The position numbers and the translations under genes are program-made. A stretch of 64,000 bases of DNA from Eledone cirrhosa (taxonomy: Eukaryota), in assembly GCA_964016885.1 (NCBI GenBank), contig OZ024752.1, positions 15,996,001-16,060,000 of the forward strand. The letters run 5' to 3'. Positions 4,788 to 63,363 of the stretch are shown here, piece by piece. Numbering within the stretch: position 1 is the first letter of the stretch; every line of letters starts with the position of its first letter. The notes beneath the pieces are model-generated. The model was not told the DNA's origin. It was given only the letters and a program-made list of their open reading frames with translations, and made no database searches.

Positions 4788-4869
4788 ACTTCCCTGATGA
4801 CGAAAGGCTTCTCCGTACGTTTCTTCGGAAACTATGTTTATTCCCTTTCAGAAACTAATTAGTTGGAGT
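4788..4869 (+). ncRNA. Type I hammerhead ribozyme with enlarged loop II
   Basis: acttcc-CTGATGA-c-gaaagg...cctttc-a-GAAA-ctaattag (palindrome)-TT-ggagt. Confidence 0.65.
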
Positions 4870-5635
4870 GAAATTTTAGTAAGTAAGTTAATTTTATAAT
4901 TTTCTTATTTTACGTCTCTCATATTATTGTTCTGCATCCCCATGCATTGAACCACAAAGTTACTAAGACAAAACCTATATATTTGCTAGCATAAGTATGT
5001 ATCTGTGTATATATATGTTACTAGATATACTAATTCTTTATATATATATATATATACAAATATAATTCAGCGAGAATCGTATTTCGGCTGGTAGAAAAAG
5101 CGAAACGAAACGCAAAATCGGAGAAATGCTGGCAAGCGCTCAATAGTTAAAAAACTAGAGTTAAACATACAATGTGTGTATGTATACGTACATACATATA
5201 TGTATACAGACGTACAGTAGTATGTATATATATACATACATGCACACATATATATATGCACATATGCGTTTACCGCACATTTATTATAATGCTTGTTTTG
5301 TTTGTTTGTAAACAAACAAACAGCCGAATTACGCCGTACAGTGTTTAGGCAACCACGTCACCTTTTTGTTTCAACACTGACACAGGAACGATGTACTAGT
5401 TTCAAGCTTATTAGCTATCGTCAGCATCGTATACCAAACAAATCGAGCATTATAATAAATGTTCGGTAAACCGATACGTGCATATATATATATATGTGTG
5501 CATGTATGTATATATATATACATACTACTGTACGTCTGTATACATATATGTATGTACGTATACATACATACATACTTACATTTAAGTAAGTGCCGTACTA
5601 AGAGTGAGAAATGAAATTTCGTTTCATTCTATTCC

Positions 5636-7190: not shown

Positions 7191-7276
7191 CTGATGTATA
7201 TTCATCCTTATCGAGCCCTCTTTGGATTTTAGTGTTCAAATGTATTATTATTACTATATATATATATATATATATT

Positions 7277-8810: not shown

Positions 8811-9556
8811 CGTTAGAACGTCAGATAGAATAGTAGAGTCGCTAGAACGTCAGATAGAACGGCAGAGTCGTTAGAACGTCGGATAGAATGGTAGAGTCGT
8901 TAGAATGTCGGATAGAATGGTAGAGTTGTTAGAACGTCAGATAGAATGGCAGAATCGTTAGAATGTCAGATAGAATGGCAGAGTCGTTAGAACGTCAGAT
9001 AGAATAGTAGAGTCGTTAGAACGCCAGATAGAACGGCAGAGTCGTTAGAACGCCAGATAGAACGGCAGAGTCGTTAGAACGTCGGATAGAACGGCAGAGT
9101 CGTTAGAACGTCAGATAGAATGGTAGAGTTGTTAGAACGTCAGATAGAATGGTAGAGTCGTTAGAACGTCAGATAGAATGGTAGAGTCATTAGAACGGCA
9201 GATAGAACGGTAGAGTCGTCAGAACGTCGGATAGAATGGTAGAGTTGTTAGAACGTCAGATAGAATGGTAGAGTCGTTAGAACGTCAGATAGAATGGTAG
9301 AGTCGTTAGAACGTCAGATAGAATAGTAGAGTCGCTAGAACGTCAGATAGAATGGTAGAGTCGTTAGAACGTCAGATAGAACGGCAGAGTCGTTAGAACG
9401 TCGGATAGAACGGCAGAGTCGTTAGAACGTCGGATAGAATGGTAGAGGCGTTAGAACATCAGATAGAATGGTAGAGGCGTTAGAACGTCAGATAGAATGG
9501 TAGAGGCGTTAGAACGTCAGATAGAATGGTAGAGGCGTTAGAACGTCAGATAGAAT
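8811..9556 (+). repeat. 29-bp minisatellite (cgttagaacgtcagatagaatggtagagt), about 25 copies, forming the head of a SINE whose body continues to ~9662
   Basis: Direct periodicity, followed by ...ctgagtttaaatcccaccgaggtcaactttgcctttcatc. Confidence 0.92.
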
Positions 9557-10204: not shown

Positions 10205-13200
10205 GTTGTAGGAGTGGTGTCGTGTAACTGTTGTAGGAGTGGTGTCGTGTAACTGTTGTAGGAGTGGTGTCATGTAACTGTTGTAGGAGTGGTGTCGTGT
10301 AACTGTTGTAGGAGTGGTGTCGTGTAACTGTTGTAGGAGTCGTGTCGTGTAACTGTTGTAGGAGTGGTGTCATGTAACTGTTGTAGGAGTGGTGTCATGT
10401 AACTGTTGTAGGAGTGGTGTCGTGTAACTGTTGTAGGAGTGGTGTCGTGTAACTGTTGTAGGAGTGGTGTCGTGTAACTGTTGTAGGAGTGGTGTCGTGT
10501 AACTGTTGTAGGAGTGGTGTCGTGTAACTGTTGTAGGAGTGGTGTCGTGTAACTGTTGTAGGAGTGGTGTCGTGTAACTGTTGTAGGAGTGGTGTCATGT
10601 AACTGTTGTAGGAGTGGTGTCGAGTAACTGTTGTTGGAGTGGTGTCATGTAACTGTTGTAGGAGTGGTGTCGTGTAACTGTTGTAGGAGTGGTGTCATGT
10701 AACTGTTGTAGGAGTGGTGTCGTGTAACTGTTGTTGGAGTGGTGTCGTGTAACTGTTGTAGGAGTGGTGTCGTGTAACTGTTGTAGGAGTGGTGTCATGT
10801 AACTGTTGTAGGAGTGGTGTCGTGTAACTGTTGTTGGAGTGGTGTCGTGTAACTGTTGTAGGAGTGGTGTCGTGTAACTGTTGTAGGAGTGGTGTCATGT
10901 AACTGTTGTAGGAGTGGTGTCGTGTAACTGTTGTTGGAGTGGTGTCGTGTAACTGTTGTAGGAGTGGTGTCATGTAACTGTTGTAGGAGTGGTGTCGTGT
11001 AACTGTTGTAGGAGTGGTGTCGTGTAACTGTTGTAGGAGTGGTGTCGTGTAACTGTTGTAGGAGTGGTGTCGTGTAACTGTTGTAGGAGTGGTGTCATGT
11101 AACTGTTGTAGGAGTGGTGTCGTGTAACTGTTGTTCGAGTGGTGTCATGTAACTGTTGTAGGAGTGGTGTCGTGTAACTGTTGTAGGAGTGGTGTCGTGT
11201 AACTGTTGTAGGAGTGGTGTCATGTAACTGTTGTAGGAGTGGTGTCGTGTAACTGTTGTAGGAGTGGTGTCGTGTAATTGTTGTAGGAGTGGTGTCGTGT
11301 AACTGTTGTAGGAGTGGTGTCGTGTAACTGTTGTAGGAGTGGTGTCGTGTAACTGTCGTAGGAGTGGTGTCGTGTATCTGTTGTAGGAGTGGTGTCATGT
11401 AACTGTTGTTGGAGTGGTGTCATGTAACTGTTGTAGGAGTGGTGTCATGTAACTGTTGTAGGAGTGGTGTCGTGTAACTGTTGTAGGAGTGGTGTCGTGT
11501 AACTGTTGTAGGAGTGGTGTTGTGTAACTGTTGTAGGAGTGGTGTCGTGTAACTGTTGTAGGAGTGGTGTCATGTAACTGATGTAGGAGTGGTGTCATGT
11601 AACTGTTGTAGGAGTGTTGTCGTGTAACTGTTGTAGGAGTAGTGTCATGTAACTGTTGTAGGAGTGGTGTCGGGTAACTGTTGTAGGAGTGGTGTCGTGT
11701 TACTGTTGTAGGAGTGGTGTCGTGTAACTGTTGTAGGAGTGGTGTCATGTAACTGTTGTAGGAGTGGTGTCGTGTAACTGTTGTAGGAGTGGTGTCATGT
11801 AACTGTTGTAGGAGTGGTGTCGTGTAACTGTTGTAGGAGTGGTGTCATGTAACTGTTGTAGGAGTGGTGTCATGTAACTGTTGTAGGAGTGGTGTCGTGT
11901 AACTGTTGTAGGAGTGGTGTCATGTAACTGTTGTAGGAGTTGTGTCATGTAACTGTTGTAGGAGTGGTGTCGTGTAACTGTTGTAGGAGTGGTGTCATGT
12001 AACTGTTGTAGGAGTGGTGTCATGTAACTGTTGTAGGAGTGGTGTCATGTAACTGTTGTAGTAGTGGTGTCATGTAACTGTTGTAGGAGTGGTGTCGTGT
12101 AACTGTTGTAGGAGTGGTGTCATGTAACTGTTGTAGGAGTGGTGTCGTGTAACTGTCGTAGGAGTGGTGTCATGTAACTGTTGTAGGAGTGGTGTCATGT
12201 AACTGTTGTAGGAGTGGTGTCGTGTAACTGTTGTAGGAGTGGTGTCATGTAACTGTTGTAGGAGTGGTGTCATGTAACTGTTGTAGGAGTGGTGTCGTGT
12301 AGCTGTTGTAGGAGTGGTGTCATGTAACTGTTGTAAGAGTGGTGTCATGTAACTGTTGTAGGAGTGGTGTCATGTAACTGTTGTAGGAGTGGTGTCATGT
12401 AACTGTTGTAGGAGTGGTGTCGGGTAACTGTTGTAGGAGTGGTGTCGTGTAACTGTTGTAGGAGTGGTGTCGTGTAACTGTTGTAGGAGTGGTGTCATGT
12501 AACTGTTGTAGGAGTGGTGTCGTGTAACTGTTGTAGGAGTGGTGTCATGTAACTGTTGTGGGAGTGGTGTCGCGTAACTGTTGTAGGAGTGGTGTCATGT
12601 AACTGTTGTAGGAGTGGTGTCGTGTAACTGTTGTAGGAGTGGTGTCGTGTAACTGTTGTAGGAGTGGTGTCATGTAACTGATGTAGGAGTGGTGTCATGT
12701 AACTGTTGTAGGAGTGTTGTCGTGTAACTGTTGTAGGAGTAGTGTCATGTAACTGTTGTAGGAGTGGTGTCGGGTAACTGTTGTAGGAGTGGTGTCGTGT
12801 TACTGTTGTAGGAGTGGTGTCGTGTAACTGTTGTAGGAGTGGTGTCATGTAACTGTTGTAGGAGTGGTGTCGTGTAACTGTTGTAGGAGTGGTGTCATGT
12901 AACTGTTGTAGGAGTGGTGTCGTGTAACTGTTGTAGGAGTGGTGTCATGTAACTGTTGTAGGAGTGGTGTCATGTAACTGTTGTAGGAGTGGTGTCGTGT
13001 AACTGTTGTAGGAGTGGTGTCATGTAACTGTTGTAGGAGTTGTGTCATGTAACTGTTGTAGGAGTGGTGTCGTGTAACTGTTGTAGGAGTGGTGTCATGT
13101 AACTGTTGTAGGAGTGGTGTCATGTAACTGTTGTAGGAGTGGTGTCATGTAACTGTTGTAGTAGTGGTGTCATGTAACTGTTGTAGGAGTGGTGTCGTGT

Positions 13201-56440: not shown

Positions 56441-56559
56441 TGTGTGTAACGCTTTTCGAAATATTTACTTCTGCGTTTACAGATTGATTTTTTTAGTTTC
56501 AGAAGATCCCGTTGAGTGTGAAAGCAGCGATTCTTTGCTTAAACTTTAATCTGTTATTT

Positions 56560-56640
<81 letters not shown>

Positions 56641-61524: not shown

Positions 61525-61588
<64 letters not shown>

Positions 61589-61772
61589 GTAATAATAATA
61601 TATTTGAAGACTAAAATCAAAAGAGGGCTCGATAAGGATAAATATATATCAAATATATAAGAAACTCAGAAGATCCTGAGTTTCAGAAGATCCCGTTAAG
61701 GGTGAAAGCAGTGATTCTTTGCTTAAACTTTAATCTGTTATTTTAATAAATATATATATATATATATATATA

Positions 61773-62294
61773 TAAAAACAAATAACGAAACGAAATTAAA
61801 TAACTCACTTTTGTATGACTGACGCTTAAACAATTAAGTTAAAAATGTACATCCACATATGTATACTGAAATACTAGTATGCATATGAATACACACACGT
61901 ATACATATGTATATGTACCAAGTTTTTCACTGGTCACTTTACCGTGAGTGTCCAGCTATTCTGTATGTAAACACACAGACAAACCGGTTTTTAGAGTCAT
62001 ACTGGTTTTTGAGGAAACACCTTTCCTCTATTCTCCGGAAAGCCAGACAAGGAATATTGAACTAGTTTCGTTGTTGTTACAACTCATCAGCAATATTTAC
62101 CTATCTACCGGCCTTTCTGGAGAATCGTAAAAGCACATATCGTTATATGCTTTTTCTATGAAAATTAGTAGTGGGCAGACTAATTTGCATAGAGTGTGAG
62201 TACGTACCGGTTCAACGGAGACGATAAAAACAAATAACGAAACGAAATTAAATTTCGTTTCGTTTGTAACTCACTTTTGTATGACTGACGCTTA

Positions 62295-62299: not shown

Positions 62300-62340
<41 letters not shown>

Positions 62341-62347
<7 letters not shown>

Positions 62348-63132
62348 CACTTATTTTCTAATGTTTGTTGGGTGAGTTGGAATTTGGCCGGAGTATCGCT
62401 AAAAAGCTTTCTCCGATATTGTATTTATTTACTTACTCTTGGCGCAGCAGATTTGAAAAAAATTCCCGGTATAAGGTTAGCATTTCTTTGTTTATTTTTT
62501 ATATATGAATAGTGATTGTTTCTTATATCTCATTCTGTTATTTTGCCCGAGAAAATATGTGTGTGTCATCAAATGTTGTACACACATAGATATTTTTTCA
62601 ATTTCCAATTGAGTTCTTAGCACGTGGCCTGAATTCCTTTCAGAGTTCATTGTCACGCGCATGTATTGTTTTTTGGGCGGTAATTCACTTCCTCATTTTT
62701 TTAATCAGTTCGAGCACCTCTTTCAGAACTGCTGGACTGGCAACCTGACAGATACCTCAGGCAGAGAAAGTGATTATCGCTAAATGCTGATGTTGGTTAG
62801 ATTATCAATATTAGTATTATTGGGGCACCCACTGATGAATTATAGGATCCCACTCGAATATATATCTATTGATGGTATACAAGCTCCTACATAAATTGGT
62901 ATAATTTCACCCAAATTGTAGGAATCCTATAATGAAACGAGACGTCCGTCTGGGAAGAGATATATTAGATATGTCTCATTTGAAATAATACAGCCAATTT
63001 TCCACGCAATACTTTTAGTTAGCACCCCGAACACATAATTGGGAATATAATCACTTATTTCCTAATGTTTGTTGAGTGAGTTAGAATTTGGCCGGAGTAT
63101 CGCTAAAGTGCTTTCTCCGATATTGTATTTAT
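62341..63132 (+). mobile_element. Retrozyme-like element: 704-bp unit plus 88-bp terminal direct repeat, in (TA)n (family R)
   Basis: 62341-62428 is repeated at 63045-63132. Homologous to 30233-31076. Confidence 0.82.
62828..62954 (+). ncRNA. Type I hammerhead ribozyme with a structured stem II insertion and a GUC site (family R)
   Basis: ccca-CTGATGA-attataggat...atcctataat-GAAA-cgagacgtccg-TC-tggg. Stem II is a perfect 10 bp. Confidence 0.83.
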
Positions 63133-63219
63133 ATATATATATATATATATATAAAATATTAAAAAAATAATGAATAAAACAATGAAACAGTTCCTTATAT
63201 TAAACAAAAAAAGTTCATT

Positions 63220-63363
63220 ATTTAACGATCGTTTCTAGGATATATATGTGTTAGAATTGGCATGCATATTCAACAGATCTATGTACAAAATTATACAAAA
63301 TTATACAAACTATCAAGATTAAATATACATACCAAACACACATATATGCCGTCTTCAGGAAGG
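63220..63363 (-). ncRNA. Hammerhead-like motif with stem I lost
   Basis: CTGAAGA-cggc atatatgtgt...acacatatat atccta-GAAA-cgatcg-TT. Confidence 0.4.

Follow-up and report, generated by a model that had tools for sequence, protein, structure and literature searches.

The insert at 62341-63132 of the window, as the whole analysed stretch of 64,000 nt is called here, raises the question of what kind of mobile element it is, which RNA was its template and whose enzyme copied it. A sequence-only reading had seen in it one non-coding 704-bp unit plus an 88-bp repeat of its own end, set in (TA)n, and had taken it for a possible retrozyme or, alternatively, for a Penelope pseudo-LTR repeat. Self-comparison of the insert bears out this layout. 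Positions 62341-62428 and 63045-63132 are identical in 83 out of 88 bases, and from this terminal repeat a period of 704 follows. The insert, assigned to a family designated A, thus runs 1.12 times round a 704-bp unit and is bordered by (TA)n on both sides, with the following features.

62301 to 62345 (no strand): (TA)n target, left flank; 57 of 73 family A insertions have (TA)n on their 5' side
62341 to 62428 (+): 5'-truncated upstream unit (pseudo-LTR), unit positions 617-704, the first 5 bases overlapping (TA)n
62429 to 63132 (+): full 704-bp non-coding unit of family A, the head-to-tail period in arrays of up to 4.7 units
62823 to 62954 (+): predicted type I hammerhead ribozyme, from motif, folding and compensatory changes
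62951 to 62972 (+): first 22 nt past the predicted cut, where 5' ends of genomic copies pile up
63090 to 63132 (+): fixed 3' end, putative start of reverse transcription; 71 of 73 A insertions end at unit positions 698-704
63133 to 63152 (no strand): (TA)n target, right flank; on the 3' side, (TA)n is present in 69 of 73 A insertions

In circularised units, the longest ORF beginning with ATG specifies 56 amino acids in family A and 54 in family B, introduced below. The GC content of the non-coding A unit is 0.355, below 50%. None of 12 ORFs taken from the window was matched by Pfam, and the idea that the 3' end is the start of a Penelope ORF ('FLxxC') found no support among the ORFs read. The A unit is predicted to fold strongly, with z = -6.5 as a linear molecule (relative to 20 shuffles) and -8.2 as a circle. 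A strand bias of folding was seen for A (z -8.2 versus -2.1) and none for B (-3.6 versus -4.3). Contigs of two sequencing runs cover the 704-bp unit, but such contigs are uninformative on ends, strand and circles. The right flank at 63153-63360 is itself a repeat, and the same stretch occurs inverted in locus L078.

The hammerhead is composed of the core CUGAUGA at 62832 (62832-62838) and GAAA at 62934, with a predicted cut after C62950, in agreement with the single ribozyme and the cut proposed earlier. Stem I comprises 4 bp (62828-62831/62951-62954), stem II (62839-62933) has 10 bp enclosing 95 nt and is branched, and stem III is short with a palindromic loop. Since Rfam at gathering thresholds yielded no match anywhere in the window, A and B copies included, the hammerhead call is based on motif, folding and covariation. 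Units that retain both core strings intact number 56 of 70 in A and 40 of 45 in B. When A and B are compared, 4 of 30 named hammerhead pairs show double compensatory changes, once in stem I, twice in stem II and once in one branch, and 97.8% of cells pair; because effectively two lineages are compared, this covariation is support that carries neither statistical weight nor a probability. In the three sequences tried, the predicted minimum is lower than the catalytic fold by 3.0, 4.5, and 6.3 kcal/mol, and within a family the hammerhead is not better conserved than the rest of the unit. A GGGC string before stem I can pair with GCCC past stem II in 12 of 13 aligned copies, the sole exception being the A copy of the window with one mismatch (62823-62826/62848-62851). 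That this pairing of loop I with stem II is real is a guess, since both strings never vary. Self-cleavage of the A hammerhead RNA is predicted from the motif, the folding and the covariation.

Other hammerheads are present nearby. A second minimal type I motif (window 62053-62098, minus strand; core at 62090, stem I of 7 bp, a loop with the palindrome CUAG, cut after 62060) lies inside a repeat at about 62000-62170. It belongs to a different family recurring at 88-98% in other fetched loci, and the repeat is probably another Penelope-type end. A simple scan, run without a chance control, showed hammerhead-like motifs at 33456-33501 (-), 5394-5424 (-), and 4794-4864 (+). Yet another canonical type I family with a 20-nt stem II region was seen in flanks of Penelope loci (L077:303, L078:8286).

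A diverged homologue of the insert had also been pointed out in the window.

30233 to 31076 (-): family B copy, a 744-bp unit plus a partial unit of about 100 bp, with an intact hammerhead

It is 65% identical to the A insert over 870 columns, and the two halves of its own 100-bp terminal repeat are 97% identical. Its hammerhead core is found at 30541 and the predicted cut after 30427, 191-194 nt from the B end. The corresponding distance in the A insert is 182 nt, so both the offset of about 180 nt downstream of the cut and the similar arrangement of the homologue were correctly noted. Stem III of the B hammerhead is a single base pair with a palindromic AAUU loop. A deletion in stem III was considered and dropped; the majority of B copies has the same short form, which is therefore a variant.

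The genome, 3.0 Gb in 1796 contigs, was searched for both families. First-look candidates numbered 2375 for A and 3375 for B, which are not copy numbers, and the 40 scored for each showed 95-98% identity; shorter queries gave 1341-1381 candidates, again not copy numbers. After dropping duplicate loci and chains touching the edge of a locus, 73 A and 50 B insertions were retained. Beside the A ends listed above, all 50 B insertions end at unit positions 742-744, and all 27 insertions of a third family, C, at 727-730. Most queries included the 3' end, and a mid-unit query without it was used as a control: all 30 loci obtained, the window copy among them, end at 701-704. No second 3' end was detected among the 73 A, 50 B, and 27 C insertions, which thus lack the optional tail of 30-40 bp and the inverted 5' copies of Penelope-like elements. 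The 5' ends are scattered. The shortest copies measure about 170 bp, the longest 4.7 units in A and more than 4 kb in B, and the upstream partial units vary from a few bases up to whole units across copies. A fixed 3' end, variable redundancy and multimers were what mapping of copy ends had been expected to show.

L188:3393-4388 and L256-L285 (- for L188): family C, with a subfamily at 92-95%

Family C has a unit of 730 bp, 82% identical to B, with a fixed 3' end and variable 5' ends as in A and B. A variant of B carries an internal duplication of 250 nt, resulting in units of 995 and 1245 nt (L035, L037, L047, L122), and the junction of this duplication resembles the 3'-end motif. On the 3' side, (TA)n is present in 47 of 50 B insertions. 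Weak candidates for target-site duplications were found in three of 73 A and two of 50 B insertions, none of them a convincing duplication outside TA. A, B, and C are young dispersed families, located on many contigs and sharing one fixed end.

From the fixed 3' ends, the variable 5' ends, arrays of up to about five units and the lack of visible target-site duplications it follows that the 88-bp repeat is a truncated upstream unit, a pseudo-LTR of the Penelope type, and not an LTR. A plant LTR retrozyme, which would have fixed LTRs each with a type III hammerhead and 4-bp duplications, was rejected, as the repeat length varies among copies and the hammerhead is of type I and lies outside the 88-bp repeat. 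The insert likely belongs, as a non-autonomous Penelope-like element, to a known class, the animal non-LTR retrozymes. The retrozyme label suits the type I hammerhead, the head-to-tail units, the non-coding sequence and the low GC content. Both labels of the sequence-only reading apply to the insert, then, and only the choice between them falls away. Its remark that the unit seems long for an animal retrozyme does not stand, because 704 bp lies within the range of 51-972 bp given in bioRxiv 10.64898/2026.07.22.740005. Two outcomes named as adverse did not occur: instead of fixed LTRs with target-site duplications a repeat of varying length was found in the A and B insertions, and none of the 73 A, 50 B, and 27 C insertions continues into an ORF as fragments of a coding element would.

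The 5' ends are not evenly distributed along the unit. Within 22 nt past the predicted cut (the cut base being counted for A), 16 of 73 A, 14 of 50 B, and 7 of 27 C insertions begin, while the 22 nt before the cut contain three 5' ends in B and none in A and C. The uniform expectation for a stretch of 22 nt is 2.3 in A and 1.5 in B. This pile-up was spotted post hoc in A and B; the prediction was recorded, and C was then examined as a test. It is uneven among queries (8/30, 1/30, and 9/27 for A; 7/33 and 9/30 for B). Stops at the cut occur in copies of about 175 bp as well as in copies of about 890 bp. A short TA tract just past the cut could have attracted junctions, and it holds 9 of the 16 ends counted near the cut in A and 10 of those in B; a longer TA tract at position 430 of the A unit has no 5' ends. 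A stall of reverse transcriptase at the folded ribozyme could produce a similar pile-up. In copy L211 the sequence skips from the first base past the cut to a position 25 nt before the cut, as a template jump off a cut end would produce (n = 1). The ends piled up right after the cut suggest that hammerhead-cut RNA was copied, and run-off on cut RNA is probably the cause of the pile-up. By starting just past the predicted cut, they also hint at cutting of the RNA in the animal, and they point to cut linear RNA as a frequent template.

In a strict circular scheme, double cleavage would yield a monomer, a host ligase would close it, and the resulting 704-nt circle, read at least one time round, would be the main template. 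The concordance of haplotypes within arrays is in line with this scheme. Considering all common sites, discordance within an insertion amounted to 15/103 in A and 14/332 in B, compared to about 44% between insertions. Once two A sites located in runs of simple sequence and, in B, seven sites of the duplicated first 250 nt had been filtered out, 4/76 in A (all in L027) and 7/274 in B remained, compared to 45% and 47% between insertions. Likewise, every unit of arrays L047 and L122 shows the 995-nt variant of B, and 92 of 93 A as well as 58 of 58 B units run across the internal cut site free of a deletion. A monomer could be released from insertions containing two or more hammerheads, which number 15 of 73 in A and 7 of 50 in B; the A copy of the window has one. 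A few copies are exactly one unit long, a weak, query-biased point, and circles have been demonstrated for coral, mussel and axolotl retrozymes (PMC7229834). Yet a closed circle offers no reason for a stop at the cut, and among over-length insertions, 8 of 30 in A and 7 of 33 in B have a second-pass stop there; these stops are easier to explain by a linear template with the downstream ribozyme uncut. Furthermore, array L027 mixes haplotypes. Haplotype sharing as such is compatible with one circle being read repeatedly, and also with a tandem donor of uniform sequence or with local duplication at a later time. Divergence within A insertions equals that between them (0.030), and the X-Y-X-X-Y pattern of array L020 suggests local duplication. 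A circle as the main template appears rather doubtful, and the chances that circles had some part in making the arrays are about even.

Penelope-like elements with a GIY-YIG domain were searched for as candidate enzyme donors. This search gave 10,596 candidates, the best-scoring 150 of which were listed and 40 loci read. They contained Neptune-like and Poseidon-like families, labelled in part from motifs in PMC8557442, plus a fragment of another kind. For the family of this fragment, 85,974 candidates were obtained; 130 were scored and showed 96-98% identity, many with open frames of 713 amino acids.

L147:1501-3639 and L141-L195 (- for L147): Hydra-clade Penelope family, very abundant, young, with open 713-aa frames

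The 713-aa ORF of L147 contains RWR (RWK-like), DKT, a CxCX5C linker and, at its C terminus, the GIY-YIG motif, and the element inserts in (TA)n. By these motifs the candidate partner matches the Hydra clade as described in PMC8557442. A Pfam scan of its protein was blank; 834 homologues were found. The end motif of the element runs into (TA)n in 36 of 87 instances and into its next unit in 45.

Comparison of this end with the unit junctions of the retrozymes gave results of different strength. The B junction matches it in register with 79% identity over 39-46 nt, and none of 2000 shuffles was as good. For A, 15 of 2000 shuffles were as good, and an internal Hydra site scores 9 versus 10 at the junction; for C the number was 23 of 2000. 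Four ends of three other Penelope families did not match A or B (348-936 of 1000 shuffles as good). Among 55 Hydra loci no further sequence in common with A or B was detected and the A/B hammerhead was absent; A and B are therefore not simple deletion products of the Hydra element. In all but one of the instances examined, the Hydra family has a hammerhead-like core of its own, a non-canonical CAGAAGA variant, and a Neptune-like family (L071, L080) resembles it in having a CAGAAGA core close to its end. The Hydra family also shows inverted pieces and, occasionally, a longer end. Neptune-like and Poseidon-like partners were rejected: their ends do not match, and among the 40 GIY-YIG loci a single A fragment turned up, some 2 kb away from an element. 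A distant Hydra protein query revealed no second Hydra family among 30 loci read, only the same one. A closer partner than the Hydra element may exist unseen, since 40 loci from the best-scoring 150 of 10,596 candidates were read. The Hydra-clade element is the likely enzyme donor for A, B, and C, the end match being strong for B and weak for A and C.

61583 to 61774 (no strand): Hydra element end plus inverted 5' piece, 94-99% identical to the L161 element, a separate insertion 600 bp upstream of A

The proximity of this fragment to the A insert is explained by the abundance of the Hydra family. End fragments occur in the window at 7192, 32242-32489, 37813-37945, 50637-52178, and 56445-56636 as well, and several of all these have inverted junctions. 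The window also harbors broken reading frames of a non-LTR retrotransposon without Pfam match (33941-35750, minus strand), whose motifs, we presume, recall the R4/Dong type, a satellite of 392 copies of a 25-bp unit with 96% matches (10205-20012), and minisatellites at 8811-9556 and 40691-42293.

There is good reason, on these grounds, to count the insert among the animal non-LTR retrozymes, as a non-autonomous Penelope-like element for which the abundant Hydra-clade Penelope element supplied the reverse transcriptase-endonuclease. The unit would be transcribed, and the borrowed protein would recognise the motif of about 45 nt at the unit junction and nick (TA)n DNA. Reverse transcription would be primed at the internal junction, some 180 nt 3' of the ribozyme, an assumption that leans on PMC11167929, in which a Penelope protein is reported to prime inside its RNA downstream of a hammerhead. 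Copying would proceed 5'-ward and stop at a variable place. If the template had been cut by the hammerhead, run-off at the cut would generate copies of about 175 bp or, one unit further on, of about 890 bp. If the site was uncut or religated, copying could pass the cut and its own start, giving rise to 1.12-unit copies and arrays. The over-length template might be a ligated circle or linear read-through of a tandem donor.

The same non-autonomous element might be driven by a Neptune-like or Poseidon-like family or by a closer relative that went unseen, in which case the resemblance to the Hydra end would have arisen by convergence in AT-rich sequence. Several families of the RT-GIY-YIG type, with long frames, exist in the genome, one of them has a minimal hammerhead about 120-190 nt before its end, and the A match to the Hydra end is weak. 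We nevertheless consider another driver unlikely: none of the three other families tested has an end that matches A or B, the similarity of B is in exact register with the insertion end of the Hydra element itself, and the distant protein query led back to the same Hydra family in the 30 loci read. Far less probable still is that the ribozyme is irrelevant and the copies are trimmed 3' ends of a longer coding element or a locally duplicated satellite. Signs of local duplication in L020 and the common occurrence in the window of 5'-truncated ends of coding Penelope elements would agree with it, but toward the 5' side the A, B, and C insertions enter another unit and never an ORF, and they are dispersed over many contigs with one fixed end.

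Copying by the Hydra-clade enzyme can be extended to a wider picture, which is put forward as a whole and only tentatively. A viroid-sized ribozyme RNA would parasitise the enzyme via the priming motif of about 45 nt alone, its host element having lost a canonical hammerhead of its own; the ribozyme would be a structural variant in which stem II, of 95 nt, has two branches and forms a pseudoknot with loop I; and the copies would record cutting in the germ line, with both cut linear RNA and religated circles being reverse-transcribed.

Retrozymes are assumed to move via circular RNA with a borrowed Penelope enzyme, and in the sole in vitro study of a Penelope protein the ribozyme was dispensable (PMC11167929). 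What the present analysis adds to the known class is a candidate enzyme identified by name and a sign of cleavage in the genomic copies. The intact 713-aa protein, together with a delimited junction motif, makes up a testable pair, genomic evidence is offered for cut RNA as template, and the three related families constitute a ready comparison. For a hammerhead in octopus or another cephalopod, PMC8557442 was the only literature found. A search of titles and abstracts, outside most subscription papers, Repbase and the element lists of PMC8557442, listed no paper on families A, B, and C or on 5' ends at the cut.

Several known systems are close to these families. Animal non-LTR retrozymes were defined in PMC7229834 (Cervera and de la Pena 2020), with circles of 170-400 nt seen on northern blots, and units of 51-972 bp linked to Penelope pseudo-LTRs were described in bioRxiv 10.64898/2026.07.22.740005 (Li, Clavereau and Pollet 2026) from 35 species, the invertebrates being three insects and one anthozoan. 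Like these, A and B consist of non-coding, AT-rich, head-to-tail units, each with a type I hammerhead and strong self-pairing, occur together with Penelope elements and are, at 704 nt for A, within the published lengths. As in axolotl retrozyme motifs, stem III is weak and its loop palindromic, and stem II of B has U-U at its base. They differ in being longer than the northern-blot circles and known here from genomic copies, in a stem II enclosing about 95 nt with two branches, and in copies of which most are monomers truncated on the 5' side or 1-2-mers, one end being fixed in (TA)n. According to a 2020 review (PMC7761336), animal retrozymes show no motif pointing to a partner; in A and B, similarity to the candidate partner, of the Hydra clade, is confined to the end motif of about 45 nt.

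With Hydra-clade Penelope-like elements, described together with non-autonomous Chlamys elements in PMC8557442 (Craig et al. 2021), they have (TA)n targeting, 5' truncation and partial tandem pseudo-LTRs in common, and with the Hydra family of this genome also the end motif, strong in B and weak in A and C, whereas A and B lack an ORF. That paper reports a canonical hammerhead for the clade, in contrast to the CAGAAGA core variant of the family found here. The non-coding Chlamys elements such as MRC1 resemble A, B, and C in their pseudo-LTRs, head-to-tail multicopy insertions and 3'-end similarity to autonomous families (weak for A and C, strong for B), but they are from green algae and without a canonical hammerhead. 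For Poseidon of Anolis, internal priming downstream of the hammerhead at AT-rich DNA was observed in vitro (PMC11167929; Frangieh et al. 2024), to which the putative fixed start in A, B, and C corresponds. Poseidon of Anolis is autonomous, did not need its hammerhead in vitro and yielded no RNA reads with ends at the cut, whereas in the families described here genomic 5' ends pile up at this very position.
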